64,000 nt of DNA from an uncultured bacterium (lineage in GTDB: Bacteria; Omnitrophota; Omnitrophia; Omnitrophales; Aquincolibacteriaceae), in contig CAZSFZ010000003.1 in NCBI GenBank assembly GCA_964606385.1, positions 29,493 through 93,492 of the forward strand. Direction: 5' to 3'. Positions 9,985-64,000 of this stretch are shown one piece after another. Numbering within the stretch: position 1 is the stretch's first letter; every line of letters begins with the position of its first letter. The translations under genes and the position numbers were made by a program. The notes beneath the pieces were generated by a model, which saw nothing but the letters and a program-made list of their open reading frames with translations, did not search any database and had not been told where the DNA came from.

Positions 9985-10006
9985 CTGAAAAAAATCACCG
10001 GAGAAC

Positions 10007-11464: not shown

Positions 11465-11482
11465 ACGCGCGAAGACCGCCCT

Positions 11483-11830: not shown

Positions 11831-11905
11831 GATTAAAAAATTCACCTAAGACCCACCTCGCCTCGCAGGCGGGGTGGACCACTCCTACGAGGTGTGAGAG
11901 GTACC

Positions 11906-20636: not shown

Positions 20637-20666
20637 GCATCCTCCTGAAAGTTAGATAAAGACCCG

Positions 20667-22543: not shown

Positions 22544-22571
22544 AGGATTTAAGCCGGCCCGCGCCGGTCCT

Positions 22572-39273: not shown

Positions 39274-39443
39274 GGCGGAGAGGGGGAGATGCGGCTCCCT
39301 TCGCTTCGTTGCGGGTAGGCCACCCGCCCCGCTCTTATGACATGAGTCATAAGCGCCTGCGGGGCTCCCTTCGAATCTCCCGTCCAAAGAACGGGAGCCC
39401 GAACCGTCATGATCTCCCGTTTTTTTTGATTGAATAGAAAACA
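39273..39443 (-). other. tRNA-Ser-derived structured element or pseudo-tRNA. It repeats the 18-nt 3' terminus of tRNA-Ser (tggcggagagggggagat, including CCA) at 39273-39290 and contains nested hairpins.
   Basis: There is an exact 18-bp direct repeat with 39444-39461. Between the copies the following hairpins occur: ACGGGAG-16nt-CTCCCGT, CTCCCGT-TCTTTGG-ACGGGAG (mutually exclusive with the first), GCGGGT-aggcc-ACCCGC, and CCCCGC..CTTATGAC-atga-GTCATAAG..GCGGGG. The region reads like a T-arm (GGGAG-ATTCGAA..TCTCCC) interrupted by about 80 nt. It has no standard cloverleaf. Confidence 0.3.
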
Positions 39444-39533
39444 TGGCGGAGAGGGGGAGATTCGAACTCCCGATACGCTTGCGCGTATAACAGTTTTCGA
39501 GACTGCCGCATTCGGCCACTCTGCCACCTCTCC
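39444..39533 (-). tRNA. tRNA-Ser (anticodon CGA), class II with a long variable arm. CCA is encoded.
   Basis: The sequence on the minus strand is GGAGAGGTGGCAGAGTGGCCGAATGCGGCAGTCTCGAAAACTGTTATACGCGCAAGCGTATCGGGAGTTCGAATCTCCCCCTCTCCGCCA. The acceptor is GGAGAGG/CCTCTCC, the anticodon loop is CTCGAAA, the variable-arm hairpin is ATACGC-GCAA-GCGTAT, and the T-arm is GGGAG-TTCGAAT-CTCCC. Confidence 0.9.
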
Positions 39534-39726
39534 GTGGTATGGAGGAAAATGCTCGGACTTTGCAGGATCCGCGTTCCGGATACAAAAGCGTTTAGAGTCT
39601 ATGTATTTCTTTAAGGTTGGTCAAGGCGAGAGAATAGGGCTCTCCGCGGCTTCCGCCATTATCGTAAGATGCCCCAAAACGATGAATCTAATTTACATTT
39701 CGGAGGCCCTTCCTTAAAATCATGCC

Positions 39727-49831: not shown

Positions 49832-51223
49832 TTATTTACCGATGCAAAATTCCGAAAAAATTATATCCAAAAGATCCTCGGAATAGACCTCCCCGGTCAG
49901 TTCTTTCAGGGCTTCCAGGGCTGCGCGAAGGTCCGGTGAGATGCATTCGAGCGAAACATTCATCTGGAAAGACGCTTCCGCGCGCCGGATCATTTCCAGC
50001 GCCGCCTCCAGCGCCTTCTTGTGGCGCAATTTCGTGATCTGTTCTCCCGATTCCGAGGTCCCGGTCTCCAGATACGCCGCGATCCTGTTCTCAAGCTCAT
50101 GAAATCCCGTCCGGGTTTTTGCGGAGATCGCGATTGCCGGCAGATCGCCGCATAACGCCTTGATCTCGTGATCTTGGATCTTTAAAGGGAGGTCGGATTT
50201 GTTTGTTAGCACAATGATCTTTTTATTTTTGGGAATAAGCCCGAAAACATGGTGGTCGGCGTCCTCAAGCGGCGCGTGGCTATCTAATAAAAACAGCACC
50301 AGGTGACTTTCCCGCAGTGCTTCAAGCGATCGCTCCATGCCCATTTTGTCCAGGGGATGATCCGCCGCGGCGATGAGCCCCGCCGTGTCCCTCAAGCGCA
50401 CATAAAAGCCGCGGATCTCGAGCTCTTCTTCGAGGGGATCGCGTGTCGTGTGCGGCAGATCGGAAACAAGCGCCCGGTCCCGTTCCAAGAGCGCGTTAAA
50501 AAGCGAGGACTTCCCCACGTTGGGTTTTCCCGCGAGCGTCACGAGCATCCCTTCGCGGATCAACTGATTGCGTTCAAATCCCGCGATCAGGGCCTTGATC
50601 CTTTCCTGGAGCTTCGCGAATTGCTGCCGCATGCCGTCTTTAACATCCACCTCCAGATCCTCTTCCGGAAAATCAAGATAGGCTTCCATGTGGGCCAAAA
50701 GCCGCATGAGCTCTTCTTTTAATGCTTTGAGGGTGCGGGAAAGCGACCCGGAAAGCTGACGGACCGCGATCTCAAGCGAAGAATCGCTTTTGGCATGAAT
50801 AAGATCGAGCACGGCTTCGGCCTGCGTCAGGTCGATCTTGCCGTTTATGAAAGCGCGCCGCGTGAACTCCCCCGGTTCGGCATGGCGGGCGCCTTTTTCC
50901 AAAAGAAATCCCAGGATCTTCTTCGTGACCGCGAAACCTCCGTGACAGCTGATCTCGATCACGTCCTGCCCCGTATAGGAACGGGGGGCGCGAAAACAAC
51001 TCACGAGCACCTGGTCCAAAAGGGCCCCCGAAGGGTCCGTGAATTTCCCCCATTGGACCGTGTTCGCGGTCGCCTCTTTGAGTTTCTTCTTTTCGTGAGG
51101 GACAAAGAACGGCTCCACCAGATCGTAGGCTTGGGGGCCGCTCACGCGGATCACCGCGATGCCGCCTTCGCCCGCCGGCGTTGCTACCGCGGCGATCGTA
51201 TCGTCCATTTCCATTTTAGCCAT
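49832..51223 (-). CDS. mnmE: tRNA modification GTPase MnmE (TrmE).
   Basis: An N-terminal THF-binding domain (IAAVATPAGEGGIAVIRVSG), the GTPase motifs GKPNVGKSS and DTAG, and the C-terminal CIGK tetrapeptide. The start at MAKME (51223) is preferred over the track's 51412. Confidence 0.9.
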   Translation of the reverse strand: MAKMEMDDTIAAVATPAGEGGIAVIRVSGPQAYDLVEPFFVPHEKKKLKEATANTVQWGKFTDPSGALLDQVLVSCFRAPRSYTGQDVIEISCHGGFAVTKKILGFLLEKGARHAEPGEFTRRAFINGKIDLTQAEAVLDLIHAKSDSSLEIAVRQLSGSLSRTLKALKEELMRLLAHMEAYLDFPEEDLEVDVKDGMRQQFAKLQERIKALIAGFERNQLIREGMLVTLAGKPNVGKSSLFNALLERDRALVSDLPHTTRDPLEEELEIRGFYVRLRDTAGLIAAADHPLDKMGMERSLEALRESHLVLFLLDSHAPLEDADHHVFGLIPKNKKIIVLTNKSDLPLKIQDHEIKALCGDLPAIAISAKTRTGFHELENRIAAYLETGTSESGEQITKLRHKKALEAALEMIRRAEASFQMNVSLECISPDLRAALEALKELTGEVYSEDLLDIIFSEFCIGK

Positions 51224-52535
51224 GAGTGAGAACCTTTCGCGCTTCACCGACCAAATAGAACGATCCCGCCACCACGACGCTATCTCCCGTACTTGAAACC
51301 TTCCGGACCAGCTCAAAGGCTTCACGGATATTCTGGGCCGGGAGCATGCATTTGAAAAGTCCTTTAGCTTCATCGAGAAGCATGGAAACGGTTTTCGCCC
51401 GGTTCCCGTCAATGCCGGTCAGGATTATTTTAGAAAAAAATCCGCTCAGGATCCGGAGCATCTCGCGGCTGTTCTTGTCATTCATCGCGCCAAACACCAA
51501 CCAAAGATTCCTCTTTTTTTCGTCATTGCGAGCGCAGCGAAGCAATCTATAGCGTGCGAGATTGCCGCGTCGCCTCTCCTCCGTCGCGGCTCCTCGCAAT
51601 GACATAATAAGCCCTTTCGTTGAGATCGGATTGTGGGCGCCATCCAGAATGAACCTCCGTCCATGTTGCTGGAAGGCTTCCATCCTTCCTTTCCAGTGAC
51701 GGCATTGCAATCCCTGTTTGGATCGCTCGAGCGTGAGTGGATAATGAAAATATTTTTGAAGAATCTCAGCTGCTTTCCAAGCGACGCCCGCGTTCTGCTT
51801 TTGAAAACCTCCGGCCAGTCCCAGCCTGACGCCGGAAAAAGGTCCGGCTTTCCACAAAGTTCCGCGGTTCTTTTTGACCGACCCGTGGATCACCCTCAAA
51901 GCCTCCGGGGCCTGATTTCCGATCACCACATGGTTTCGGAATTTGATGATCGCGGCCTTTTCCGCGGCGATCCTCGCGATCGTGCTCCCCAGGAACGCTT
52001 CATGATCGAGATGGATGGGCGTGAGGATCACCAGCGGTGCTTTCAGGACATTGGTCGCGTCAAGACGCCCGCCAAGCCCGATCTCGAAGATGCCGATCCG
52101 GACGCCTGTCCTCGCGAAGATCCAGATCGCCAAAAAGGTCAGGATCTCGAAATAGGTCAGAACTCCCAATCGGCCCGGGAGAGGGTTTTTGTTTAAAAGA
52201 TTCCGGATCACCGAAAGGCCTTCCGCCCAAAGCTTGGGGGATGCCATGTCCCCTTGGATCCGGATGCGTTCACGCGGGGTTTCCACATGCGGTGAATGAT
52301 AATAGCCTGTCTGGATGCCGTTGGTTTTGAGAATGGACTCCAGAAAAAACCCTGTAGAGCCCTTACCGGTCGTACCGGCGATCAGGATCGGGAAAAATTT
52401 CTTTTCGGGGTGGCCGCTGATCCGGAGCAGATGCTCCATGCGTTTCAGATTAAAGAAGGCGTTGTCCGGGAACCGGCTCAGCTTTTCGAGGTTCAGGAAG
52501 GAATCAAGATAGCTGAGGGATTGGGAGTAATTCAT
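51216..52535 (-). CDS. folC: Bifunctional folylpolyglutamate synthase / dihydrofolate synthase, carrying an in-frame ~27-aa insertion encoded by a palindromic element.
   Basis: The Mur-ligase family P-loop IAGTTGKGST, plus DATNV and LDGAHNP. Between AHNP and LVFGAM lies an extra segment ...GAATEERRRGNLARYRLLRCARNDEKK..., encoded by the 51522-51603 TIR element. Confidence 0.85.
   Translation of the reverse strand: MNYSQSLSYLDSFLNLEKLSRFPDNAFFNLKRMEHLLRISGHPEKKFFPILIAGTTGKGSTGFFLESILKTNGIQTGYYHSPHVETPRERIRIQGDMASPKLWAEGLSVIRNLLNKNPLPGRLGVLTYFEILTFLAIWIFARTGVRIGIFEIGLGGRLDATNVLKAPLVILTPIHLDHEAFLGSTIARIAAEKAAIIKFRNHVVIGNQAPEALRVIHGSVKKNRGTLWKAGPFSGVRLGLAGGFQKQNAGVAWKAAEILQKYFHYPLTLERSKQGLQCRHWKGRMEAFQQHGRRFILDGAHNPISTKGLIMSLRGAATEERRRGNLARYRLLRCARNDEKKRNLWLVFGAMNDKNSREMLRILSGFFSKIILTGIDGNRAKTVSMLLDEAKGLFKCMLPAQNIREAFELVRKVSSTGDSVVVAGSFYLVGEARKVLTHG
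51522..51603. repeat. 82-bp palindromic MITE/RPE-like element inserted in-frame in folC.
   Basis: The 11-bp terminal inverted repeats are GTCATTGCGAG ... CTCGCAATGAC. Internal nested inverted repeats are gcaatct/agattgc and gccgcg/cgcggc. Flanks are AT-rich (tttttttc | ataataag). The core gtcattgcgagcgcagcgaagcaatc resembles a palindromic repeat seen in many uncultivated-bacterial genomes. Confidence 0.55.
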
Positions 52536-52540
52536 TTTCT

Positions 52541-52603
52541 CGGGAAACGGGGAACGGCAAACGAGAAACGATCCGTTAACCGTTCGTCGTTACCCGTTCC
52601 CCG
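52541..52603. repeat. REP-like palindromic element, copy e, between purH and folC.
   Basis: gggaaacggggaacggcaaacgagaaacgatccgttaaccgttcgtcgttacccgttcccc. The arms are GGGGAACGG/CCGTTCCCC and the core is CCGTTAACCG. Confidence 0.5.
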
Positions 52604-52608
52604 ATGTT

Positions 52609-54186
52609 TTAATGTTTAAAATGCCGCTCGCCGGTGAAGGCCATCGCGATGCCGGCCTGGTCGCAGGCGGCGATCACATCGTTATCGCGGATGGAACCAC
52701 CGGGCTGGATGATCGCCTTGATCTTGTGCTTGGCCGCGAATTCGATCGAATCCGGCATTGGGAAAAAAGCGTCGCTTCCGAGCATCGCGCCTTCGGCTAG
52801 GTATCCCGCCTTCTGGATCGCGATCTGCACCGAGTCCACGCGGGACATCTGCCCTGCCCCGATCCCGACCGTTCGTTTGCCCTGCGTCAGCACGATCGCG
52901 TTCGATTTCACAACTTTGGAGCACTGGAACGCGAAGATCAGCTCTTCGGTCTCGGCTTCGGACAGTTTGGCCTTTGTAACAAAGTTCAGTTTCTTTTTAA
53001 GTTCCGCCATGTGATCTTTGATGGGACGGTTCTTTTCCTGGACCAGGATGCCTGTGCGAAGGAACTTCACGTCGTAAAGGTTCTCGTCGCGGAATTGATG
53101 GACCTCGATCAGGCGGAGGTTTTTGCGCGCTTTAAGAAGCTTGAGCGCTCCCGGCTTGAAGGACGGGGCGACCAGCACTTCAAAGAACGCGAGCTTCTCG
53201 AGCACCTTTTCCGCGATCTTCCGGTCGCAGCAACGGTTCACGCCCACGATCCCGCCAAAAGCGGAGAGCGGATCGCCGTCGATCGCCTTTTCGACCGCGA
53301 CAAGCGCTTGCGTGTCCTGCGCGATGCCGCAGGGATTGTTGTGCTTAATGACGCACGCGGCCGGCGCGTTGAACTCCGCGAGCACATCGAGCGTCGCGTC
53401 CACGTCCATGAGGTTATTAAAGGAAAGCTCCTTGCCGTGAAGCTGGGTCCAGGAGGCCCCGGCCTTTTGCGTGGTCGGGATGTAATAGGCGGCTTTTTGA
53501 TGCGGGTTCTCGCCGTACCGCAGGTCCTGCGCCTTTTTGAAATGGAACACAAATTGCGGCGGGAGCGCGGCGTCTTCCGCGGTTTTCTTTTTATGTTTGG
53601 CCATGTATTGGCTGATCACCGCGTCATACGCGGACGTTTTTTCAAAAACCTTTTGTGAAAGCGCGAACCGCGTTTCATCCGTCACGCTTCCCTTGTGCTC
53701 ATCAAGTTCTTTGGCGACGCGATCATAGTCCGCAACGTCCGTGATCACGGTCACCGATTCATAGTTCTTGGCCGCGGAACGGAGCATGGACGGCCCGCCG
53801 ATATCGATGAATTCCTTGGCCTCGTCCATACTGAGGTTCCCCTTGCTCGTCGCTTCTTCGAAGGGATACAGGTTCACGACCACGAGGTCGATGGGCTTGA
53901 TCCCGTGCGCTTTGACCTGTTTCTGGTGGCTTTTTTTGTGGCGGAGGAAAAGAAGCCCGCCGTGGATCTTCGGGTGAAGGGTTTTCACGCGGCCGTCGAG
54001 CATTTCGGGAAAACCCGTGTAATCCTCGACCGCCATCGCGGGGACCTTGGCGTCCTTCAGGGCTTTCAGCGTGCCGCCGGTGGAAAGGATCTCCGCGCCG
54101 TGTCTTCGCAGGGTTTTGGCAAAAGGGATAAGACCTGTTTTATCAGAGACGCTGATGAGCGCGCGATGGACCGTGTGACGTGACAT
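52609..54186 (-). CDS. purH: Bifunctional AICAR formyltransferase / IMP cyclohydrolase.
   Basis: The N-terminal MGS-like segment ALISVSDKTGLIPFAKTLRRHGAEILSTGGT. The protein is 525 aa with the AICARFT/IMPCHase blocks. Confidence 0.95.
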   Translation of the reverse strand: MSRHTVHRALISVSDKTGLIPFAKTLRRHGAEILSTGGTLKALKDAKVPAMAVEDYTGFPEMLDGRVKTLHPKIHGGLLFLRHKKSHQKQVKAHGIKPIDLVVVNLYPFEEATSKGNLSMDEAKEFIDIGGPSMLRSAAKNYESVTVITDVADYDRVAKELDEHKGSVTDETRFALSQKVFEKTSAYDAVISQYMAKHKKKTAEDAALPPQFVFHFKKAQDLRYGENPHQKAAYYIPTTQKAGASWTQLHGKELSFNNLMDVDATLDVLAEFNAPAACVIKHNNPCGIAQDTQALVAVEKAIDGDPLSAFGGIVGVNRCCDRKIAEKVLEKLAFFEVLVAPSFKPGALKLLKARKNLRLIEVHQFRDENLYDVKFLRTGILVQEKNRPIKDHMAELKKKLNFVTKAKLSEAETEELIFAFQCSKVVKSNAIVLTQGKRTVGIGAGQMSRVDSVQIAIQKAGYLAEGAMLGSDAFFPMPDSIEFAAKHKIKAIIQPGGSIRDNDVIAACDQAGIAMAFTGERHFKH

Positions 54187-55039
54187 CGTGTTGAACCCTC
54201 CTCTTAAAGCAGCGGTGTAGTTTTAAAGTGATGGGACCGGGTTTTCCGGACCCGATCGAGCGACCATCCAACTCGCGGACCGGCAGGACCTCCCAGGAAG
54301 TATTGCAAAGAAAAGCTTCATCCGCGTTGAAAAATTCGTGCCGGGTCAGCGGAACTTCCCGGACTTTTATCCCGCATTCGAGGGCGCATTTTATCACAAA
54401 CCTCCGGGTCACTCCATTCAAGATTCCGTGCTCCGGCGGCGTCAAAAGCTCCGCGCCCTGACCTGTCCGACCTCCGGGGTCGGATCGGTCCGACCTCCGG
54501 GGTCGGATCCGGTATTTCACGATGAAGAAATTCCCGATCCGGGTCTCGGTCAGCAGACCCTCCCGGTCCAGGAATACCCATTCATAGACCTTATCCGCGT
54601 GGGGCTCGGTACTCGCCATGATCGCCTGCTGATAGGCCGAGGTTTTGGCCTGCCAGGGAAAGGTGCTGGGCCCACCCCTCGGGAACGTCGCGGTCTTCAG
54701 GGCGACCCCTTCCTCGTAAATTCTTTGGGGATGCTCCCGGAACCCCAGCATCACAAAAGAACGGCCCTCCCATAAAGTCAGCCGCACAAAACATTCCGGA
54801 GCCCCGAAAGCGTGAAGTGCCGCCGCGAGCTCCCGCCGCAGCCGCGCCGGATCCGGCATCGGCCGGTAACCCACGGTCCTGGCCGACTCCAGAAGCCGCG
54901 CGAGATGTTCCTTTTCATGAAAGATACGGCCGCGATAAGCGCGCATGCTCTCAAAAACGCCGGCGGCTTCGGTCTTCGCCAGGTCCAGCGAGATCTGCCC
55001 CGCGATTTCTTTTCCGTTCTCGTAAATTTTATAAGCCAT
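54143..55039 (-). CDS. pabC: Class IV aminotransferase fold protein, probably aminodeoxychorismate lyase (PabC), with a repeat-derived loop insertion.
   Basis: The fold-type IV PLP motifs are present (E..GNFFIVK ... LLTPPEHGILNGVTRRFVI). It is immediately downstream of the pabB-like gene. About 16 extra residues (RIRPRRSDRSDPGGRTGQG) are encoded by a tandem 2x23-bp hairpin repeat at 54466-54511. The start at MAYKIY (55039) is preferred. Confidence 0.65.
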   Translation of the reverse strand: MAYKIYENGKEIAGQISLDLAKTEAAGVFESMRAYRGRIFHEKEHLARLLESARTVGYRPMPDPARLRRELAAALHAFGAPECFVRLTLWEGRSFVMLGFREHPQRIYEEGVALKTATFPRGGPSTFPWQAKTSAYQQAIMASTEPHADKVYEWVFLDREGLLTETRIGNFFIVKYRIRPRRSDRSDPGGRTGQGAELLTPPEHGILNGVTRRFVIKCALECGIKVREVPLTRHEFFNADEAFLCNTSWEVLPVRELDGRSIGSGKPGPITLKLHRCFKRRVQHDVTSHGPSRAHQRL

Positions 55040-55052
55040 AGGGTGACAGGGT

Positions 55053-56510
55053 TTAACGTCCGGCTTGTCGAAGCGCCTGAACAAGCGCTTTCGCTTTGTG
55101 AAGGGTCTCTTCATATTCTTTTCCGGGGTCCGAATCATGAACGATCCCCGCCCCGACCTGGAGATGCCCTTTGCCTTTTTTCAGGATCAGGGTCCGGATC
55201 ACGATGTTCAGGTCCATGTCCCCGTGAAGGTCGATATACCCGAGGGAACCCGTATAAACACCGCGCCGCACGGGCTCCAGCTCGTCGATGATCTCCATGC
55301 AGCGGATCTTCGGGCACCCCGTGATCGTCCCGCCCGGGAACATCGCCCGGATCAGGTCGAAGGCACCCCTGTCTTTTTTGAGATGGCCCACGATCTTCGA
55401 GACGATATGCACCACATGAGAGTATTTTTCAAGCGTCATGAATTCCTCAACCTTCACGGAGCGGTAACCGCAAACGCGGCCGAGATCGTTCCGTTCAAGG
55501 TCCACAAGCATCAAGTGTTCCGACTTTTCTTTTTCATTCCGGAGAAGGTTCCGGCGCCACTCCGCCAGCTTGTTTGAGGAACGGCGGACGGGGCAGGTCC
55601 CCGCGATCGGACGGGTCTCGCAAAGCCGTCCTTTTTTCCGGACCAGCCGCTCCGGAGAAGAACTAACGATCTCCAGATCCCCTGTTTTGAGAAAACAGGA
55701 GAAAGGCGACGGATTGATCGAACGAAGTTTTCCGTAAAGCGCCAGCGGCGATCCCTGGTATCCGAACGAGAAACGCTGCGACAGGTTCGCCTGGTAGATA
55801 TCCCCGGCCGCGATATATTCTTTCGCCTTCTCCACCATGATTTTGAACCGTCGCCTCGTCATCTCCGCCGTAAATTTCTTCAACTTGAACTGCCGTTTTG
55901 TTTTCATGACGGGCTTTCCAAAATATGCTCTGAGCTTTTTCGATTCCCGTTCCCCGTTCCCCGTTCCCCGAACATTGATCACGACGTGATAAACACGTTT
56001 TCGGTGATCATAAACGATCACATCCCGGAAAAGGCCGAGATAAACCCGGGGGACGCGCGGATCGGGCTTGGCGCGGAACCGGATCTTGTCGCAAAGTTCG
56101 GCCGCCTCATACCCGAAATAACCCACCCACCCTCCCGTAAAAAAAGGGCGGCGTGGCGCTGCCGGAAGCCGGTATTTTTTAAAGAGCTTTTTGAGAACGG
56201 GAAAAAGGTCGCGCGCGGGATACCGTCCGCGACATTCGCCTTCTATGGAAAGAGACTCCCGGTCCAGCCGGATCTCGAGGGCCGGGTCCATCCCGATATA
56301 GGAATAAACCTGGTCCGGGGGCGCATATTGAGGAGAACCCTGACTTTTATTTTTTTTTAGAAAGTCAGGATTGCCCCAATTTCCTCGAAGAGGAAATTGA
56401 TTGGGGTCGGGACTATCCAGGAAAAAGCAGGCTTGGGAATCAGCGTGGACGGCTTGAAAGATCTCCCAAGGGGTTCGGGACGATCGGAAGGTTTCGATCA
56501 CAAAGGACAT
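55053..56510 (-). CDS. pabB: Aminodeoxychorismate synthase / anthranilate synthase component I family (chorismate-binding enzyme).
   Basis: The C-terminal chorismate-binding domain (FPGGTITGCPKIRCMEIIDELE...RGVYTGSLGY). It is coupled to pabC. It contains an in-frame (cgttcccc)x3 microsatellite at 55944-55970 that encodes ..GTGNGERE.. Confidence 0.8.
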   Translation of the reverse strand: MSFVIETFRSSRTPWEIFQAVHADSQACFFLDSPDPNQFPLRGNWGNPDFLKKNKSQGSPQYAPPDQVYSYIGMDPALEIRLDRESLSIEGECRGRYPARDLFPVLKKLFKKYRLPAAPRRPFFTGGWVGYFGYEAAELCDKIRFRAKPDPRVPRVYLGLFRDVIVYDHRKRVYHVVINVRGTGNGERESKKLRAYFGKPVMKTKRQFKLKKFTAEMTRRRFKIMVEKAKEYIAAGDIYQANLSQRFSFGYQGSPLALYGKLRSINPSPFSCFLKTGDLEIVSSSPERLVRKKGRLCETRPIAGTCPVRRSSNKLAEWRRNLLRNEKEKSEHLMLVDLERNDLGRVCGYRSVKVEEFMTLEKYSHVVHIVSKIVGHLKKDRGAFDLIRAMFPGGTITGCPKIRCMEIIDELEPVRRGVYTGSLGYIDLHGDMDLNIVIRTLILKKGKGHLQVGAGIVHDSDPGKEYEETLHKAKALVQALRQAGR

Positions 56511-56552: not shown

Positions 56553-57890
56553 TTATTCTTTATGCGAATAAAAAACAAGCCCGGTCGCGAGCTTGGGATA
56601 GAAATAGGTGGATTTCTGGGGCATGCGTTCGTTCACGGCGCCCATTTTTTCGAGCATATCGACCTTCGGCGGCTGTAAAAGAAACACCGCCTGGGCCTCG
56701 CCCTTTTGGAGCGGCGTGACCGCCCCGTCCACCGTGTGCTCAAAGCGGAGAACCGATTCCCACCGGTCTTCCTTGAGCCCGAGCAGTTCGGAGAAGATCA
56801 GGTGCGCGAGAACGTTCACGTTCAGGTCATACCACACATCCGGTTTCCCCTGGATCATCCGTTCTTTGGCCTTTTCCTTGTCGATCATGGTGAGGAGGAA
56901 ACATCCTTCGTCGAGCACGAGCCCGAACACCCGGCCTTCCTGGTCGTAAGAAGCGGTCATTTCCTTCAATTGATTGAGGGAAACTTTTTCCACTTTGAAA
57001 TATTCGCTCAAACGGCGGATCGCTTCGCCTCCGGTCATCCCGAGCTTGGTCATGATCCGGTGCGTCGGAAGCACGATGAACCCCGGATCATCAAAGCTCA
57101 CAAGCGCCATATACATGTAATCGAAAGGAAACAGCACGAGATCCGACAAACATCCTTCCTCCCGTTGTTGTCTCGCGTATTCAAGCGCCGTCTCGTAGCG
57201 GTGGTGCCCGTCGGCGATATAGACCTTCTTGGATTGAAGCGCCTTGTGAAGTTTGGCAAGAATATCCGGATCTTCGATCGCCCAAAGAGTGTGGACGATC
57301 TTGTCATCATCCTCCGCCTCAAAAAGCGGGCTGGAGTTCATCGGATCCTGGATGATGCTCCGGACTTCGAAGCCTTTATCCTTATAAAGACCGAAGACCG
57401 GAGAAAAATTGGTCTGCACGGTCCGGAGAAGCTTCATGCGGTCTTCTTTGGGGCCGCGGAGCGTCTTCTCGTGCGGGACGATGATCCCTTTTTCAAAAGG
57501 CTCGAGGCGAACGCGCCCCAACAAAGCGAACCGGTTCTTGACGACCTGGCTGACGGGGTCCTTGAAAGTCTGCCGGTACACATAAAAACAGGGCTCTTTT
57601 TCCTGAACAAGAACGCCTTTTTTTTGCCATTCCTGGAACGTATCGCGGGCGCGCGTGTAGGCGTTATTCTGGTCGGTATCCGCCGGATCTTTTTTGTTCA
57701 GGATCAGCCGGATACAATTGAAAGGGGAGTTTTCATAAAGCTTCTGCTGCTTTTCGGCCGAGATGACGTCGTAGGGCGGCGCCAGCACGGAGGCCGCCTT
57801 GACGCGCGAAGGGTCATAGCGCCAAGCCTTGAACGGCTGGAAATCCAGATGTTTGGTGGAAGTGCGGGAACCGCGTTGGTCAATGGTCAT
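56553..57890 (-). CDS. DUF1015 domain-containing protein.
   Basis: A ~445-aa protein with an N-terminal F.PFKAWRYDP segment, APPYD, ADGHHRYETAL and a C-terminal ..TYFYPKLATGLV, all typical of the DUF1015 family. Confidence 0.7.
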   Translation of the reverse strand: MTIDQRGSRTSTKHLDFQPFKAWRYDPSRVKAASVLAPPYDVISAEKQQKLYENSPFNCIRLILNKKDPADTDQNNAYTRARDTFQEWQKKGVLVQEKEPCFYVYRQTFKDPVSQVVKNRFALLGRVRLEPFEKGIIVPHEKTLRGPKEDRMKLLRTVQTNFSPVFGLYKDKGFEVRSIIQDPMNSSPLFEAEDDDKIVHTLWAIEDPDILAKLHKALQSKKVYIADGHHRYETALEYARQQREEGCLSDLVLFPFDYMYMALVSFDDPGFIVLPTHRIMTKLGMTGGEAIRRLSEYFKVEKVSLNQLKEMTASYDQEGRVFGLVLDEGCFLLTMIDKEKAKERMIQGKPDVWYDLNVNVLAHLIFSELLGLKEDRWESVLRFEHTVDGAVTPLQKGEAQAVFLLQPPKVDMLEKMGAVNERMPQKSTYFYPKLATGLVFYSHKE

Positions 57891-57987
57891 AGGGTCGGAA
57901 TCTTAACACAGCGTATGTTCTTTGACAAGAACATGCCGAGGAAACTGGCCGCGACTCACGGATCGTTCGCCGTTCTCCGGTTTTTAA

Positions 57988-58308
57988 CTATTTCACCTTC
58001 GCGCCGTCCGCGATGGGCCGTTCGGGACAAACCAGCGTTAGCGTTGTCGCGTCGGAAGCGGCAAGAAGCATTCCGTTGGACTCCACCCCGCGGATCACCA
58101 CAGGGTCCAGGTTGTCGATAATGACGATCTTCTTGCCTTTCAACTGTTCTTCGGTGTAGTGGGCCCGGATCCCCGCTACGATCTGCTTGCGGACCTCGCC
58201 CACCTTGATACCGAGCACATAAAGGCGGTCCGCGTTCGGGTGCGCCGCGACGGTCTCAATTTCAGCTACTTTGATATCTAATTTCTGGAAATCTTCATAG
58301 GAAGCCAT
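57988..58308 (-). CDS. tRNA-binding protein (CsaA/Trbp111, Myf/EMAP-like OB-fold domain).
   Basis: FQKLDIKVAEIETVAAHPNADRLYVLGIKVGEVRKQIVAGIRAHYT..IIDNLDPVVIRGVESNGML is the tRNA-binding OB-fold. The start at MASYED (58308) has a GGGGGA RBS. Confidence 0.7.
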   Translation of the reverse strand: MASYEDFQKLDIKVAEIETVAAHPNADRLYVLGIKVGEVRKQIVAGIRAHYTEEQLKGKKIVIIDNLDPVVIRGVESNGMLLAASDATTLTLVCPERPIADGAKVK

Positions 58309-58614
58309 ACATCCCCCATTTTCTTGAAAATAAAGTGCTTGTGAGCGAGCGAATGGGCGACATTCTAGCATAAAATCCAAACAGACCAATGGCTGATAGC
58401 TCATCGCCTATAGTCAAAAGTTTTTAAGCAATGGGCTATTTAATAGAGGTCACAGTCTATTTTTTTCGGATTATCGGACGTATCTGATGTAACTTTTTAT
58501 CTCTAAAACGCTTAGAAACGCCTTCTTTCGCTTGATTTTCGAAAGCTTGCTGATATGATATCGACCCTCGGCTTTAAATCCTATCGTCTTCATATAAATC
58601 AACAGGAGGAATCA

Positions 58615-59730
58615 ATGGGCAAGATCAAGATCGCTATTGTGGGGACCGGCAATTGCGCGGCATCCCTCGTCCAAGGGCTCGAACACTACCGGGCTCTCGC
58701 CAGCCAGAAGCCGTCCAAGAACAAACCTATCGAATGGTTTGGCCTCATGAACTATGACATGGGCGGTTACTTCCCCCAGGATATCGAGGTCGTGGCGGCA
58801 TTTGATATTGATAAGCGCAAAGTGGGCGAACGCCTGGATGTGGCTCTTGCCGCAAAACCCAACTGCGTGTGGAGCATCGGTCCGGTCCCCAAAAGCAAGG
58901 TTAAGGTCGAAATGGGTAATGTTCTGGACGGCGTTTCCGAGCATATGGCCAACTATAAGGAAGACCGCACTTTTGTCGTCTCTGACAGGAAACCGTGCAA
59001 CGTCGAGAAGGTCTTGAGGGAAAGCGGCGCCGAGATTCTGATCAATTACCTCCCGGTCGGTTCTCAGAAGGCCACGGAATTCTATGCCGAAGCCTGCCTG
59101 AAAACGGGCGTCAGCCTCATCAACTGCATGCCGGTCTTCATCGTCTCCAATCCGGCTTGGGCGAAACGTTTTGAAGCGAAGCGTATCCCTTGCGTCGGCG
59201 ATGATATCAAGGCCCAGATCGGCGCGACGGTCACGCACCGCACGCTCGCGAAGCTTTTCATGGACCGCGGCGTACGGATCGACCGCACTTACCAGCTCAA
59301 TACCGGCGGCAACACGGACTTCTTGAACATGCTCAACCGCGCCCGCCTGGAATCCAAGAAGATCTCCAAGACCTCCGCGGTGCAAAGCCAGCTGGATGTG
59401 CCGCTCGATGAGGACAATATCCACATCGGCCCTTCGGATTATGTTCCCTGGCAGAATGATAACAAGGTCTGCTACCTGCGCATCGAAGGCCGCGGATTCG
59501 GGGGCTTCCCTGTCACGGCGGAAATGCGCCTCTCCGTCGAAGATTCTCCGAATAGCGCCGGCTGCTCCATTGACGCCATCCGGGCCTGCAAGATCGCCCG
59601 CGACCGCAAGATCGGCGGGCCGCTCATCTCCATGTCCGCTTACACGATGAAGCATCCGCCCAAACAGATCGTGGACTACGAAGCCAAAGAACTGGTCCGT
59701 AAGTTCATCCAGGGCACCTGCCCCCGGTAA
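58615..59730 (+). CDS. ino1: Inositol-3-phosphate synthase (myo-inositol-1-phosphate synthase), archaeal/bacterial short form.
   Basis: KIKIAIVGTGNCAASLVQG (NAD fold), about 370 aa, C-terminal MIPS catalytic blocks (NTGGNTDFLNMLNR, SKKISKTSAV). An AGGAGGA RBS lies upstream of the ATG at 58615. Confidence 0.8.
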   Translation: MGKIKIAIVGTGNCAASLVQGLEHYRALASQKPSKNKPIEWFGLMNYDMGGYFPQDIEVVAAFDIDKRKVGERLDVALAAKPNCVWSIGPVPKSKVKVEMGNVLDGVSEHMANYKEDRTFVVSDRKPCNVEKVLRESGAEILINYLPVGSQKATEFYAEACLKTGVSLINCMPVFIVSNPAWAKRFEAKRIPCVGDDIKAQIGATVTHRTLAKLFMDRGVRIDRTYQLNTGGNTDFLNMLNRARLESKKISKTSAVQSQLDVPLDEDNIHIGPSDYVPWQNDNKVCYLRIEGRGFGGFPVTAEMRLSVEDSPNSAGCSIDAIRACKIARDRKIGGPLISMSAYTMKHPPKQIVDYEAKELVRKFIQGTCPR

Positions 59731-59735
59731 CGGCC

Positions 59736-60332
59736 ATGTCCTTGCGCGAAACGGTTTATCCCAAAGTCGAACCGATCGCCAATGCGATCGTCTCTTTTTT
59801 GAAGGAGCAGGGTATTTCTCCGATGCAGTTGACGCTCGGAGGCGCAGCGCTCAGCCTCCTAACAGGCGTCATCTACGCGAAGGGTTATCTTTTCCTCGGC
59901 GGCGTGATGCTTTTCATCGCGGGAGCGGCCGATCTGCTCGACGGCCTGCTCGCGCGCACGACCGGCAAGACAAGCCTTTTCGGCGCCTTTCTCGACTCGG
60001 TCGTCGACCGCTACTCGGATTTTTTTGTTTTTGGAGGGCTCGCAGTTTACTTTGCTCGTAACAGCGAGATATTCTGGTTCCTCGTCACGCTTGGGATCAT
60101 CCTTGGTTCTTTCGCGGTCAGCTACACCAAGGCGCGGGCCGAGAATTTTATTAAAAATTGCGGTATCGGCGTCTTCGGAAGGTCGGAAAGAGTTTGCCTT
60201 TTGATCATCGGAACTCTGGTTTGGCCGCTCCTGAAGCTTGTGTTGCTCGTCCTGCTGGTGGGCACACACGCTACGGCCGTCCAACGGATCCTTCACACGA
60301 GAAAGACCCTCGCCGAAAACCCCCAAGGTTAA
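59736..60332 (+). CDS. CDP-alcohol phosphatidyltransferase family protein. Adjacent to MIPS, it is probably a phosphatidylinositol-phosphate synthase-like enzyme.
   Basis: The CDP-OH transferase motif D-x2-DG-x2-AR...G-x3-D-x3-D appears as AADLLDGLLARTTGKTSLFGAFLDSVVDRYSD. It is a multi-TM protein and is coupled to the MIPS gene. Confidence 0.8.
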   Translation: MSLRETVYPKVEPIANAIVSFLKEQGISPMQLTLGGAALSLLTGVIYAKGYLFLGGVMLFIAGAADLLDGLLARTTGKTSLFGAFLDSVVDRYSDFFVFGGLAVYFARNSEIFWFLVTLGIILGSFAVSYTKARAENFIKNCGIGVFGRSERVCLLIIGTLVWPLLKLVLLVLLVGTHATAVQRILHTRKTLAENPQG

Positions 60333-61532
60333 ATGAACGCGCTGCGTTCCTTTTCCGGGGTATTCCTCCTGGCGGTCCTTCTGGGCCTTCCTCCCGTCTT
60401 CGCGGCTGAAACAGCCCCAAACCGGGAGCTTGAGGGCATCCTTCAGAAGATCGAGTCCCGGCATTACCGCTGGATCGGGCTTCGCGCCGACGTGCTCCTT
60501 TTTTTCGCCAAGACCGGGGACCCGAACGCGATGTGCGGCGGGGAACTTTTGTACCAGCGGCTCGACGAGCGCATGTTCCTCACCTGCGTGGACGCCCAAC
60601 AACAGCTGATGTTCATATTCCGGATGTTTGACCGCCGCTTCGATCTTTACCTCCCCTCCCAAAATACGGTCTATCACGGATCCATCTTTGATATGGAGGA
60701 CTCTCCGGACATCGAAAGCCATCTCAAGGCCCGCGACCTTTACCGCGCGCTCAAACCGATGGCGGTCGATCCCCGCCGGGCGAAAGTCGAGCGGACGAAT
60801 GACGCGATCACGAGCCTGGACGTTTATGGCCGGAACGAGGACGAGGGAAAACTCGTGAGAAAACTCTACCTGACCCCGGAAGGCGACGTGCGCGGCGAGC
60901 TTTTTTATGACTCCAAAGGACGCCCGATGACGGAGATCCAGCGTTATGATTTCCGGGAGATCAAGGGCCAGGCCGGGTCCTATGACTCCATCATCTTCCC
61001 GAAGAAGATCACGATCACATCCCCCGAAACAAAAAAAGGAAGCGCGATATTCTTTAACCGGGTCAAGGCCCTGGATACGGTCGACCCTTTGGAATTCATG
61101 CTGAGGTTCCCGAGCAAGACCAAAGAAGTGTACCTGGATGAAAGAGACCCCCGCTTCGCGTCAAAATCTAAAGAAACGGCCGTCACCCAACCGCCGGTCC
61201 AGCAACAACCCGAAGTTTACCTAGCCACGCCGATCCCCAACGCTTCGCGTCCGAAAAGCAAAGAAACCGCTCCTAAATCGAAACCCAGGGAAAAGAAATC
61301 GAAGAAAGATCTGCCGCCGGCTCCCCGGGAAGAAAAAACAGAACCGAAGAGCGAGAAGCCTTCCGGATCTCCAGCCCCCGCGGCGGAGCCCGTAGCGACT
61401 GTCGTTTCAGAACCCGCGGAAGCGGATCTGGTGGTGGAGGATCGCGCGCCGGCCGTTCCGCTTTCAACCGCGGATGCCCAAACCACGCTTGATCCTTCCG
61501 TGGATCCTATGACGGAAATGGAAAAGCAGTAG
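60333..61532 (+). CDS. Secreted hypothetical protein (possible LolA-like lipoprotein-sorting fold) with a Pro/Lys/Glu-rich disordered C-terminal tail.
   Basis: The signal peptide is MNALRSFSGVFLLAVLLGLPPVFAAE. A globular ~260-aa region follows. The C-terminal ~110 aa are low complexity (PKSKETAPKSKPREKKSKK...). The start overlaps the upstream stop (TAAATG). Confidence 0.4.
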   Translation: MNALRSFSGVFLLAVLLGLPPVFAAETAPNRELEGILQKIESRHYRWIGLRADVLLFFAKTGDPNAMCGGELLYQRLDERMFLTCVDAQQQLMFIFRMFDRRFDLYLPSQNTVYHGSIFDMEDSPDIESHLKARDLYRALKPMAVDPRRAKVERTNDAITSLDVYGRNEDEGKLVRKLYLTPEGDVRGELFYDSKGRPMTEIQRYDFREIKGQAGSYDSIIFPKKITITSPETKKGSAIFFNRVKALDTVDPLEFMLRFPSKTKEVYLDERDPRFASKSKETAVTQPPVQQQPEVYLATPIPNASRPKSKETAPKSKPREKKSKKDLPPAPREEKTEPKSEKPSGSPAPAAEPVATVVSEPAEADLVVEDRAPAVPLSTADAQTTLDPSVDPMTEMEKQ

Positions 61533-61565: not shown

Positions 61566-62558
61566 CTAGCGGAAAAACAGTTTGACCGTGGCGTAGGAGA
61601 TCGCCGCGATCACCGCGGAGCAAGGGATCGTCAGGACCCAGGCCCAAATGATCGTCCCGGCAACGCCCCATTTCACCGCGCTCATGCGCTTCAAGGACCC
61701 GACCCCCATGATCGCGCCCGTAATCGTGTGGGTCGTGCTCACCGGGATCCCCATCGAGGAAGAAATAAAAAGGGTCACCGCTGCGCCAGATTCGGCGCAA
61801 AAGCCATCCAGCGGGCGCAGTTTTGCGACCTTCTGTCCCATGGTCTTCACGATCCTCCATCCTCCGAACATGGTCCCTAACGCGATCGCCACATAGCATG
61901 AAAGACCGACCCAGATCGGAATATCGAATTCCTTGCCAAGCAGTCCCGCGCTGAAAAGAAGGCTCGCGATGATCCCCATGGTTTTTTGCGCGTCGTTGCC
62001 GCCGTGCCCCAGACTGTAAAGCGCCGCCGAGAGGAGCTGCCCCTTCCGGAAGAGATGATCGACCTTAAGCGGCGCCGTTTTCCGGAAGATCCAGTAAACC
62101 GCGATCCCGAAAACAACGCCAAGTAAAAGGCCCACGATCGGGGAAATAAAAATAAAAGCGACGGTCTTAATGATCCCGCTCCAGACCAGGGATTCCGGGC
62201 CTGTTTTTACGAGGGCCGACCCGACCAGGCCGCCGATCAAGGCATGCGAGGAGCTTGTCGGAAGACCGAAATACCAGGTGATGATGTTCCAAAGACAGGC
62301 GCCCATAAGCGTCCCGAAAATAATGTGGTTGTCCACGATGGCGATATCGATGATCCCTTTGCCCATGGTCTTCGCGACGTGATGTCCGAAAAAGAAAAAA
62401 GCGACGAGATTGAAAAAGGCCGCCCAGATGACCGCTTTTTGGGGAGAAAGCACACGGGTGGAAACGATCGTCGCGATCGAATTGGCAGAATCGTGGAAAC
62501 CGTTCAAAAAATCAAAAAGCAACGCGAGGAAGATCAGAAAAGCGATATAGGTCGTCAT
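61566..62558 (-). CDS. pitA: Inorganic phosphate transporter (PiT family).
   Basis: GFHDSANSIAT near the N-terminus and a repeated GHGGNDAQKTMG motif, which are hallmark PiT/PHO4 signatures. About 10 TM segments. Confidence 0.9.
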   Translation of the reverse strand: MTTYIAFLIFLALLFDFLNGFHDSANSIATIVSTRVLSPQKAVIWAAFFNLVAFFFFGHHVAKTMGKGIIDIAIVDNHIIFGTLMGACLWNIITWYFGLPTSSSHALIGGLVGSALVKTGPESLVWSGIIKTVAFIFISPIVGLLLGVVFGIAVYWIFRKTAPLKVDHLFRKGQLLSAALYSLGHGGNDAQKTMGIIASLLFSAGLLGKEFDIPIWVGLSCYVAIALGTMFGGWRIVKTMGQKVAKLRPLDGFCAESGAAVTLFISSSMGIPVSTTHTITGAIMGVGSLKRMSAVKWGVAGTIIWAWVLTIPCSAVIAAISYATVKLFFR

Positions 62559-62569
62559 GTTCTTCGGGC

Positions 62570-63202
62570 TTAAGCGTGCTTCACGAGAATGGATTCGACC
62601 ACGTGCACGGCATCTTCACAGATGTCCAGGACCGTTTCGGCATCCTGGTAAATATCTTTCCATTTCACGACCGCGACGGGATCTTTGCTGTATTTTTCGA
62701 AAAGCTCTCCCAGCATGTCATCGCGCATCTTGTCGCCGAGATTCTCGAGGTTGTTGACCTCAATACAGGCTTTCAGGATCTCCTTGCTTTGTTTCATATC
62801 CCGGAGGCCTTTGACCGCCTGCGAAACGCCTTTGACGGACATTTCAATCACCCGCGCGAATTCCGAAAGATTTCTCTCCATGCTCAGGATCTTGTAAACG
62901 CGAAGCCGCTTGGTGATGGTGTAGAGCATATCGATGATATCATCCATCTCTTTAGCCAGATCATGGATGTCTTCCCGATCAAAAGGCGTGATGAAGGTAT
63001 TATTCAGCTGGTCCATGATCTGGTGCGACACCTCATCGCCAAGATGCTCGATCTCCTTCATGATCCCGACTTCAACTTCAGACACTTTATAATCGGCCAC
63101 CGTTTTCGCGAAATGGGTCGCGGCTTGCACCGCGTAATCCGCCTGCTTGTCAAAAAGATCGAAGAAGCTGGTTTCTTTAGGAAGAAGGAACCCGAATGCC
63201 AT
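62570..63202 (-). CDS. DUF47 (TIGR00153, PhoU-like) protein, the usual partner of PiT transporters.
   Basis: A ~210-aa helical protein immediately upstream of, and co-directional with, the PiT gene. The family-typical start is MAFGFLLPKETSFFDLFDKQ. Confidence 0.8.
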   Translation of the reverse strand: MAFGFLLPKETSFFDLFDKQADYAVQAATHFAKTVADYKVSEVEVGIMKEIEHLGDEVSHQIMDQLNNTFITPFDREDIHDLAKEMDDIIDMLYTITKRLRVYKILSMERNLSEFARVIEMSVKGVSQAVKGLRDMKQSKEILKACIEVNNLENLGDKMRDDMLGELFEKYSKDPVAVVKWKDIYQDAETVLDICEDAVHVVESILVKHA

Positions 63203-63352
63203 AGTGATCTCCTTTACAAGTTCAAAAACTTTAAGAAGGTTGGAGGGAGCGCGTTGGACTCCACAGGGAAAATATTTTAAGAGAACTAAAAACCGTGGGT
63301 ATGGTACTTGCCCGAATCCCGTTCGTAAAGCGAAAAAACCTCGGGTGCAGGC

Positions 63353-64000
63353 TCAGGCGGCTTCGAAGTGATGGCGCACTTCCTTGCCCTGTTTGAGATA
63401 GATCGTGTCTTCCGCGATATTATTGGCGAGATCCGCGATGCGTTCGAGATTGCGGCCGATCATGATAAAGTGCAGGGCGCGGCGCACAACCGAAGGATCC
63501 TTTTCCATCAAGCCCGCCATTTCTTCATAGAGCTTGTCGTTGAGGTCGTCGATCTTGTCGTCGCTTTGAAGCACTTTACGGGCAAGATCCACGTTCTCGT
63601 TCATAAAACAATCCAAGGCGTCCCGGACCATGCGCTGGACCGCTTCCGCCATACTGTTTAAAGGAAATTCGATCTTGAGAAAAGTCTCAGCTTGTAGGGC
63701 TTTGCCTTTTTCGGCAATATTGACCGCGTGGTCTCCCATCCGCTCGAGGTCGGTATTGATCTTGAGGATCATGGTCAGAAGCCTCAGGTCCCCAGCCACG
63801 GGTTGGGCGAGGGCAAAAAGAGCGTGGCCCTTTTCGTCGATCTCGATCTCAAGCTGGTTGATCATCGCTTCGTCCTTAAAAACAGCCTCCGCGAGGTCCG
63901 AAGACCGGGTCAGCAGCGCCTCGATCGATTTCTGGATCGCCCCTTCCACCAAGAGGCCCATCTGAAAAAGCTTTTGTTTCAAAGTTTTAAGTTCTTCCGC
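63353..64000 (-). CDS. phoU: Phosphate signaling complex protein PhoU (5' end beyond the window).
   Basis: Two PhoU repeats, each with an E/D..D metal motif (DLERMGDHAVNIAE; NLERIADLANNIAED). The reading frame continues past position 64000. Confidence 0.8.
   Translation of the reverse strand, partial: AEELKTLKQKLFQMGLLVEGAIQKSIEALLTRSSDLAEAVFKDEAMINQLEIEIDEKGHALFALAQPVAGDLRLLTMILKINTDLERMGDHAVNIAEKGKALQAETFLKIEFPLNSMAEAVQRMVRDALDCFMNENVDLARKVLQSDDKIDDLNDKLYEEMAGLMEKDPSVVRRALHFIMIGRNLERIADLANNIAEDTIYLKQGKEVRHHFEAA

Follow-up and report, generated by a model that had tools for sequence, protein, structure and literature searches.

Organisation of the locus

This work concerns three genes that lie in tandem on the forward strand of a 64-kb stretch of DNA from an uncultured Omnitrophota bacterium (64,000 nt of contig CAZSFZ010000003.1, assembly GCA_964606385.1; the whole of this stretch is called the window here). 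They encode a myo-inositol phosphate synthase (MIPS), a CDP-alcohol phosphatidyltransferase (below simply the transferase) and a predicted secreted protein of the LolA/LolB fold, and are listed with their associated features in Table 1. We consider it likely, with good confidence, that they form a promoter-led operon in a diderm Omnitrophota bacterium, and that this operon serves the synthesis of inositol phospholipids.

The three genes are very closely spaced. The MIPS reading frame ends with TAA at 59728–59730, and the transferase ATG follows after only 5 nt (CGGCC, 59731–59735). The TAA of the transferase (60330–60332) is in turn abutted by the ATG of the third gene, with a gap of 0 nt. There is no clear Shine-Dalgarno sequence before the transferase ATG, and we infer translational coupling of MIPS and transferase from the spacing alone. 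A longer mechanical open reading frame (ORF) would start MIPS at ATG 58555. This start would overlap the predicted −10 box (58554–58559), and the homologues, together with Mycobacterium tuberculosis Ino1, align from the sequence MGKIKIA; ATG 58615 is therefore taken as the true start.

The intergenic region upstream of MIPS was aligned across 10 Omnitrophota loci. The −35 and −10 hexamers are invariant or nearly so, and the Shine-Dalgarno sequence is kept as GGAGGA in all of the aligned loci. Conservation, seen as invariant columns, extends past the promoter hexamers over the region 58471–58603: the consensus of the GCTTAGAAACGCCTTcTTTCGC block contains the inverted repeat GAAAC-N6-GTTTC, which abuts the −35 box, and a further block in the 5′ untranslated region, with the consensus CCATCGTCTTCATATAAATCAA, is conserved across the 10 loci. 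Comparison of the intergenic region with Rfam gave no family matches. The upstream blocks suggest a conserved regulator site or a leader element. A terminator-like hairpin within the transferase gene (59773–59790) was dismissed, such sites being fewer than expected by chance, and the 33 nt separating the third gene from the convergent PiT gene yielded no convincing terminator.

Table 1. Features of the predicted operon and of its third gene product, in window coordinates.
Feature	Position	Strand	Evidence
Conserved upstream blocks TTATCGGACGTAT, GTAAC, GCTTAGAAACGCCTTcTTTCGC	58471–58531	+	Alignment of 10 loci
Predicted sigma-70-type promoter: −35 TTGATT, 16-nt spacer, TG-extended −10 TATGAT	58532–58559	+	Consensus scan
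Shine-Dalgarno sequence AGGAGG, 5 nt 5′ of MIPS ATG	58604–58609	+	Direct reading
MIPS, short bacterial/archaeal form, 371 aa	58615–59730	+	Pfam, NCBIfam, PDB, homologues
PIP/AIP-synthase-like CDP-alcohol phosphatidyltransferase, 198 aa	59736–60332	+	Pfam, NCBIfam, PDB, AlphaFold2 model
Omnitrophota-specific secreted LolA/LolB-fold protein (predicted), 399 aa	60333–61532	+	Fold
Putative signal peptide of third protein, residues 1–24	60333–60404	+	By inspection
Beta-barrel domain of third protein, about residues 30–270	60420–61142	+	Predicted model
Disordered Pro/Lys/Glu-rich tail of third protein, residues 286–399	61188–61529	+	Predicted model, sequence

MIPS

The first protein is matched by the Pfam family Inos-1-P_synth (PF01658) over the complete profile (1–107 of 107; E = 1.7e-36, 125.1 bits against a cut-off of 27 bits), and by the solved structure of M. 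tuberculosis Ino1 (1GR0) over residues 3–367 with 52% identity (E = 1e-112). Its NAD-binding GxGxxA stretch, IVGTGNCA, is aligned to VGVGNCA of 1GR0. The TIGR03450 model, which describes the actinobacterial mycothiol-linked INO1 equivalog, gives a full-length match of 420.8 bits that is under its cut-off of 638 bits, and the protein is therefore a short bacterial/archaeal MIPS from outside that actinobacterial subfamily. In the PDB sequence search, the related five-membered-cyclitol-phosphate synthase 6K96 scored much lower, with 176 against 380 bits. The protein is predicted to make inositol phosphate from glucose-6-phosphate.

The transferase

The transferase belongs to the Pfam family CDP-OH_P_transf (PF01066; E = 4.8e-14). 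A regular expression search found the signature of the family complete, as D66-x2-D69-G70-x2-A73-R74-x8-G83-x3-D87-x3-D91 (encoded at 59931–60008). The motif, at residues 66–91, does not vary among 117 Omnitrophota homologues.

The best curated model is that of the archaeal archaetidylinositol phosphate (AIP) synthase (NCBIfam NF040950), which matches over the full length with 142.5 bits against a cut-off of 180. It is followed by phosphatidylinositol phosphate (PIP) synthase (NF045883; 115.8 bits, cut-off 170), the Bacteroides BT_1523-type PIP synthase (82.9 bits, cut-off 350), and the fusion of inositol-phosphate cytidylyltransferase (IPCT) with the synthase of di-myo-inositol phosphate phosphate (DIPP), IPCT-DIPPS (NF041135; 63.7 bits, cut-off 580). 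The phosphatidylglycerophosphate and phosphatidylserine synthase models come last (PgsA, 35.8 bits, cut-off 109.1; PssA, 26.6 bits, cut-off 107). Ten diverse relatives that were sampled score in the same way, with the AIP model best and all of them lying between the two curated equivalogs. Because it is below both cut-offs, the transferase is part of a broad, uncurated radiation between the AIP and PIP equivalogs, and on its sequence scores we file it as PIP/AIP-synthase-like, belonging to neither. At E ≤ 1e-10 it is matched by 2,595 clusters at 50% identity, which together with the position of the ten sampled relatives implies that metagenomes hold a far wider range of this enzyme class than the curated models cover.

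A PDB sequence search agreed with this ranking. PIP synthases were found first (Renibacterium, 5D91, 1.6e-19; M. tuberculosis PgsA1, 2.5e-14; M. kansasii PIPS, 3.3e-14), followed by AF2299 (2.6e-10), the Archaeoglobus fulgidus IPCT-DIPPS (4.7e-6) and phosphatidylserine synthase (0.56). Structural comparison gave the same picture: the six best Foldseek matches to the AlphaFold2 model of the transferase (pLDDT 87.3) are all PIP synthases, with TM scores of about 0.8. The scores are 0.74–0.81 for PIP synthases, as compared with 0.77–0.80 for AF2299, 0.72 for IPCT-DIPPS, 0.55–0.57 for PgsA and 0.44–0.51 for phosphatidylserine synthase.

In PgsA1, the phosphate of inositol phosphate is held by R94, S132, R155 and R195 together with the backbone of R152, with Y133, K135 and R137 nearby, and R94 has been described as conserved in enzymes that use inositol phosphate (PMC6506517). 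The counterparts in the transferase are identical (R92, S129, Y130, K132, R134, R149, R152 and R184). Apart from S129, which is kept in 113, none of them varies among the 117 Omnitrophota homologues, and they show almost no variation in 138 distant cluster representatives. This pocket is not expected to separate the transferase from DIPP synthases, which share the same acceptor.

Some of the source annotations of close homologues read 'CDP-diacylglycerol--inositol 3-phosphatidyltransferase' or 'archaetidylinositol phosphate synthase'. The exact transferase was found in Logan contigs of only 3.3 kb, which reveal nothing further than the window does.

Taken together, these results support the assignment of the transferase as a CDP-alcohol phosphatidyltransferase that uses inositol phosphate. 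The first-pass annotation of this DNA had described a short-form MIPS, followed across a 5-nt gap by a transferase with the full CDP-alcohol motif and of the inositol-phosphate type. The gene pair is as described, and the rankings by HMM, PDB sequence and structure agree on the type, with PgsA and PssA far lower; the grouping with PgsA/PssA that would have spoken against the annotation is therefore not seen. As to phylogeny, which that annotation had suggested as a check, a neighbour-joining tree was made from 139 representatives, the transferase and two PDB-derived PIP synthases. The tree is star-like: its signal is limited to an Omnitrophota group standing apart from the actinobacterial enzymes, and it gives no finer placement.

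Conservation of the gene order

The nearest organism-named homologues of the transferase (68–87% identity) all come from metagenome-assembled genomes (MAGs) of Candidatus Omnitrophota. A scan of related loci, with one genome per species, returned 42 loci, of which 38 are of the Omnitrophota type (24 so named, the remainder recognised by common synteny). In 35 of these 38 the gene next upstream of the transferase is MIPS, whose product is 67–94% identical to the window protein. The transferase identity across related loci is 44–86%, with the gene order the same. Judged from these sequences, the gene pair is conserved far beyond chance.

The third gene also keeps its place. A family HMM located the LolA-fold gene directly downstream of the transferase in 31 loci, and every locus that has the family (31 species-level genomes and three divergent metagenomic contigs) has it directly 3′ of the transferase. 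The spacing is 0–24 nt in the five junctions that were measured (the window and loci L026, L045, L047 and L048), and each of the three most divergent members of the family (36–48% identity) follows a CDP-alcohol phosphatidyltransferase at 3–24 nt. One divergent contig is long enough to show what comes next, namely PAD_porph and CN_hydrolase genes, where the window has a phosphate transporter (PiT) instead.

Upstream of MIPS in these loci is a divergent gene pair, which in the window lies on the minus strand at 56553–58404 and encodes a 445-aa DUF1015 protein and a free-standing tRNA-binding-domain protein of the MetG C-terminal/Trbp111/CsaA type. Almost all related loci have the pair in the same place, even where identity falls to 38%. 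We know of no functional link between it and the operon.

Four relatives of the transferase come from outside the Omnitrophota (two Desulfobacterota, one Magnetococcales and one Thermoplasmatota), and have neither MIPS nor a LolA-fold gene nearby.

The LolA-fold protein

The N-terminus of the third protein, MNALRSFSGVFLLAVLLGLPPVFA followed by AE, resembles a Sec signal cut after VFA, as judged by eye. By inspection there is no lipobox cysteine: the first cysteine is residue 68, and the family consensus also lacks an N-terminal cysteine. The tail is proline-rich, and is first basic and then acidic.

No Pfam or NCBIfam family matches the protein, and there are no PDB sequence matches at E ≤ 10. 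The superfamily models PF03548, PF03550, PF17131, PF14125 (DUF4292) and PF07044 (DUF1329) likewise give no match to the window protein at E ≤ 1; over 38 family members at this threshold, a single one touches DUF4292 (E = 0.063). Its relationship is apparent at the level of fold. The AlphaFold model, calculated from 38 sequences (pLDDT 81, pTM 0.73), is a LolA/LolB-superfamily barrel, with the unclosed antiparallel beta-barrel enclosing helices that is typical of the superfamily, and Foldseek matches it to DUF1329 and 'lipoprotein-sorting' proteins, NE2245 and the Porphyromonas gingivalis LolA3 with E values of 5e-11 to 2e-10. We therefore describe it as a predicted secreted LolA-like protein, at the level of fold only.

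The family has 111 homologues, and every one that carries an organism name is from the Omnitrophota. In an alignment of 38 sequences there are 35 invariant positions, many of them charged, and a near-invariant sequence, G..FD..DSP...SHL...DL..ALK (residues 116–142), falls in the modelled helices. Such polar conservation would seem to exceed what a plain acyl-chain carrier needs.

Proposed pathway

We regard it as probable that the operon directs de novo synthesis of inositol phospholipid by the two-step route of mycobacteria, Bacteroides and archaea, whose characterised pathways are the model for both steps (PMC6506517, PMC9246714, PMC9385802). By homology, MIPS would cyclise glucose-6-phosphate to 1L-myo-inositol-1-phosphate, using a bound NAD+. 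From homology, conserved residues and gene linkage, the membrane transferase would then take a CDP-activated lipid, most likely CDP-diacylglycerol. In this step D66, D69, D87 and D91 would form the two-metal site and R92, S129, R149, R152 and R184 would position the inositol phosphate, and the products would be PIP and CMP. A phosphatase encoded elsewhere would presumably dephosphorylate PIP to phosphatidylinositol (PI).

The co-translated LolA-fold protein may then handle the lipid product or a lipid-anchored derivative in the periplasm, for example toward the outer membrane. In the window, two genes for lipid A acyltransferases and one for an autotransporter of 2016 aa indicate an outer membrane, and a periplasmic carrier therefore makes sense. 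The two acyltransferases, of the LpxL family, were also considered as acyltransferases of phosphatidylinositol mannosides, for which the matches are weak and below cut-off; lipid A acyltransferase matches better, and the two genes are no sign that such mannosides are made. There is a precedent for pathway-specific carriers in the LolA2/LolB2 genes that lie inside flexirubin (lipid-pigment) loci, and LolA3 proteins are known to carry long lysine-rich tails (PMC11885536). One possibility is that the LolA-fold protein is a dedicated handler of the operon product in the periplasm, acting as a soluble shuttle for PI, PIP or a PI-anchored molecule on its way from inner to outer membrane or cell surface or, less likely, as an enzyme that processes periplasmic PIP. 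This is a tentative suggestion, to which we attach a rather low likelihood.

Evidence against the proposal and alternative interpretations

Several observations weigh against the proposal. The enzyme activities are predictions from gene content. The transferase falls under the cut-offs of both the AIP synthase and the PIP synthase equivalogs; the archaeal model scores higher, so that CDP-diacylglycerol is the likely but not the sole candidate donor. The role suggested for the LolA-fold protein is a proposal from its adjacency and its modelled fold. All substantial ORFs of the window were scanned with Pfam, and among them there is no PIP phosphatase (PgpA-like, as Bacteroides BT_1525), CdsA or inositol monophosphatase, and no PAP2 gene.

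The gene order also has exceptions. Five assessable loci have the MIPS–transferase pair and lack the LolA-like gene, with either a saccharopine-dehydrogenase-like gene or convergent genes after the transferase instead; the third gene is therefore not obligatory. Conversely, loci L026, L028 and L029 keep the transferase and have no MIPS within 6 kb. Here the transferase is found directly after the tRNA-binding gene (around 5500–7440), with a clear LolA-fold gene in L026 and L029, and in L028 a weak match cut by the contig end. Contigs L045 and L046, which are related to this group, retain MIPS. In the three lineages without it, MIPS has either been relocated, or else inositol phosphate or inositol is taken up. 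From the pattern of conservation as a whole we conclude that MIPS and transferase are the stable core, to which one lineage has added the third gene as a partner that goes with the transferase and not with MIPS.

The first-pass annotation had also reported a secreted LolA-like protein in third position and the lack of an adjacent cytidylyltransferase gene. AlphaFold and Foldseek bear out the former at the level of fold, with the signal judged by eye, and the latter extends to the whole window. The PIP phosphatase that it proposed to look for did not turn up in the 64 kb that were searched.

Of the alternatives, the one that survives best, and which we find quite plausible if somewhat short of an even chance, is that the third gene encodes a general periplasmic lipoprotein chaperone, an analogue of LolA or LolA3 unrelated to inositol lipids, and that the cassette consists of two genes. 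Its fold matches are indeed lipoprotein carriers, and no link to a lipid pathway is known for LolA3 of P. gingivalis and Flavobacterium johnsoniae, which among soluble structural analogues with a long charged tail comes closest. Synteny among close relatives is conserved on both flanks; set against this is the fact that the LolA-fold family is always directly 3′ of the transferase while the downstream neighbour varies, and that the gene stays with the transferase in two loci without an adjacent MIPS. The five loci that have the pair without the third gene fit a two-gene cassette, and the 35 invariant positions, many of them charged, fit a general chaperone less well. No LolCDE genes are found in the window, and no LolB-like or exporter gene adjoins the third gene.

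A different proposal concerns the lipid donor. The transferase could act as an archaeal AIP synthase, taking an ether-linked or isoprenoid CDP-alcohol and making an ether-type inositol lipid. The AIP synthase is the best curated model for the transferase and for all ten sampled relatives, although the margin over PIP synthase is small and both scores are under cut-off. Homologues of the ether-lipid gene elbD were reported in 93 of 267 Omnitrophota MAGs in a Black Sea survey (PMC11868695); in the window, however, there is no archaeal lipid-core gene (GGGPS/UbiA-type, CarS or glycerol-1-phosphate dehydrogenase), and the sole Fe-ADH gene (11894–13021), considered as a candidate for the last of these, scores as a generic alcohol dehydrogenase. 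The closest genomic relatives outside the Omnitrophota are bacterial (Desulfobacterota, 38–41% identity, as compared with 30% for the archaeal Thermoplasmatota), and head-group enzymes of this class, namely PgsA and PgpA, reportedly accept both kinds of lipid core (PMC9385802). We therefore consider an archaeal-type donor improbable.

It is very improbable that the product of the pair is di-myo-inositol phosphate, a soluble osmolyte, with the transferase as a stand-alone DIPP synthase using CDP-inositol. The conserved phosphate pocket is compatible with this, since a DIPP synthase shares the acceptor inositol-1-phosphate, and MIPS and IPCT-DIPPS have been predicted in non-thermophilic Atribacteria; in that case, however, a bifunctional IPCT-DIPPS was present (bioRxiv 10.1101/536078). 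The transferase is a single-domain protein of just 198 aa, and no nucleotidyltransferase/IPCT domain is fused to it, adjacent or present elsewhere among the window genes. The IPCT-DIPPS model scores far below its cut-off and at less than half of the AIP synthase score, and the A. fulgidus enzyme is the weakest inositol-type match both by sequence and by structure.

Finally, the idea that the transferase simply makes phosphatidylglycerophosphate or phosphatidylserine, as PgsA or PssA does, and is next to MIPS incidentally, has some backing in several annotations of close homologues ('CDP-diacylglycerol--glycerol-3-phosphate 3-phosphatidyltransferase') and is refuted by the HMM scores, by the PDB sequence and structure rankings (TM about 0.8 for PIP synthases) and by the invariance in 117 homologues of R92, the equivalent of PgsA1 R94.

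Comparison with known systems

The proposed inositol phospholipid pathway is closest to that of mycobacteria, comprising Ino1 (1GR0) and PgsA1/PIP synthase (6H53; Renibacterium 5D91; M. kansasii 6WM5). The MIPS proteins are 52% identical, and the transferase shares with the mycobacterial-type PIP synthases the CDP-alcohol phosphotransferase motif, the pocket residues and the predicted fold, at 33–36% identity and TM 0.74–0.81. The expected chemistry is identical, with CDP-diacylglycerol and inositol-1-phosphate giving PIP. Unlike in mycobacteria, MIPS and transferase are here in one predicted operon, with a LolA-fold gene attached, and the host is a diderm of another phylum; the mycobacterial Ino1 and PgsA1 genes are not known to be adjacent. 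The mycobacterial PIP phosphatase is likewise unidentified (PMC6506517).

Clustering of MIPS with a PIP synthase in a Gram-negative bacterium has been described for Bacteroides thetaiotaomicron BT_1522–BT_1526, where PI is also made via PIP (PMC9246714). That cluster also encodes a PIP phosphatase resembling PgpA, a membrane protein resembling GtrA and a synthase of inositol-phosphoceramide. All three are absent here, whereas the Bacteroides cluster is without the LolA-fold gene that the Omnitrophota operon has.

The archaeal AIP synthase (NF040950; Morii et al. 2009, 2014, as cited in PMC9385802) uses the same acceptor, inositol-1-phosphate, and is of similar size (about 190–200 aa). It differs from the transferase in that the host here is bacterial, the score is under cut-off and there are no archaeal lipid-core genes in the window. 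The IPCT-DIPPS of hyperthermophiles (A. fulgidus 4MND; NF041135) belongs to the same superfamily, has the same acceptor and is often linked to MIPS. It carries a cytidylyltransferase and its product is a soluble osmolyte, whereas the Omnitrophota transferase has no cytidylyltransferase domain or gene and is a much weaker match.

The third protein can be likened to members of the LolA/LolB superfamily (9TPM, 9TP6, 3BK5, 4Z48), above all to its larger forms, which include DUF4292, DUF1329 and 'lipoprotein-sorting' proteins, and to LolA3. It has no detectable sequence similarity to the Pfam families LolA, LolB, DUF4292 and DUF1329, and is restricted to the Omnitrophota. The flexirubin LolA2/LolB2 proteins partner an aryl-polyene pigment (PMC11885536), whereas the third gene here accompanies predicted inositol phospholipid synthesis and has no LolB-like neighbour.

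Other features of the window

Convergent with the operon, at 61566–63982 on the minus strand, are genes for the PiT (PHO4) phosphate transporter, a PhoU_div (DUF47) partner and PhoU. Only the closest relatives retain this neighbourhood; in others PAD_porph/CN_hydrolase takes its place.

The remaining observations concern genes further from the operon. The autotransporter (823–6873, minus strand) combines ten PATR repeats with an autotransporter beta-domain at the C-terminus, and at 2016 residues it is large for the surface of the very small cells of this phylum. Two CHASE2-GGDEF diguanylate cyclases of identical architecture are encoded at 7256–9328 and 44419–46191 (minus strand), and a 616-aa ORF at 9995–11845 (minus strand) has no Pfam or NCBIfam matches. 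Genes for folate and one-carbon metabolism (thyA, folA, a FolC-family gene and purH) are scattered over 20139–21461 and 51216–56510 on the minus strand, in a set that also includes a PabB-like chorismate-binding enzyme and, in an overlapping gene, a class IV aminotransferase, likely PabC. At 21458–25816 (minus strand) lie genes for an ATP-binding cassette (ABC) ATPase, an ABC-2 permease fused to a GldG-like ABC_transp_aux domain (831 aa), and a DUF4340 protein, in an arrangement that resembles the gliding-associated GldA/F/G transporters. A tRNA-Ser(CGA) gene (39444–39533, minus strand) lies inside the 5′ end of a mechanical ORF for a tetratricopeptide repeat protein (37984–39585, minus strand), and the true start of that gene is therefore downstream of the tRNA.

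Significance

Inositol phospholipids are usually seen as peculiar to eukaryotes, archaea and a handful of bacterial groups such as Actinobacteria, some Bacteroidota and spirochaetes. Bacterial inositol lipids have been called comparatively rare (PMC9246714), and the first-pass annotation called the gene pairing uncommon among bacteria, but the 2,595 clusters that match the transferase form a large family. Our literature searches found no report linking Omnitrophota (or Omnitrophica) to inositol lipids, and nothing on MIPS together with phosphatidylinositol in metagenome-assembled genomes. The core pair is an ordinary and well-supported member of the known two-step bacterial/archaeal inositol-lipid pathway, which is predictable though previously unremarked. 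The sole unusual element is the LolA-fold partner, which would be dedicated to the operon and is an orphan in sequence. Without a link between this protein and the lipid, the finding amounts to a correct and routine functional annotation.

If the proposal is correct, the operon of MIPS and PIP synthase, conserved from promoter to stop codon across many Omnitrophota genomes, extends the predicted producers of inositol phospholipids by an entire uncultured phylum. Lipid biogeochemists would also gain a candidate bacterial source of the inositol head groups of anoxic waters and sediments. The LolA-fold gene offers a testable handle on the fate of PIP after its synthesis, and also on the route by which specific phospholipids reach the outer membrane. 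Should the LolA-fold protein prove to be a handler of the operon product, it would represent a LolA type whose specialisation is for the head group of a phospholipid and not for lipoproteins, and inositol lipids would be a hallmark of the envelope of the Omnitrophota, which are ultra-small bacteria.

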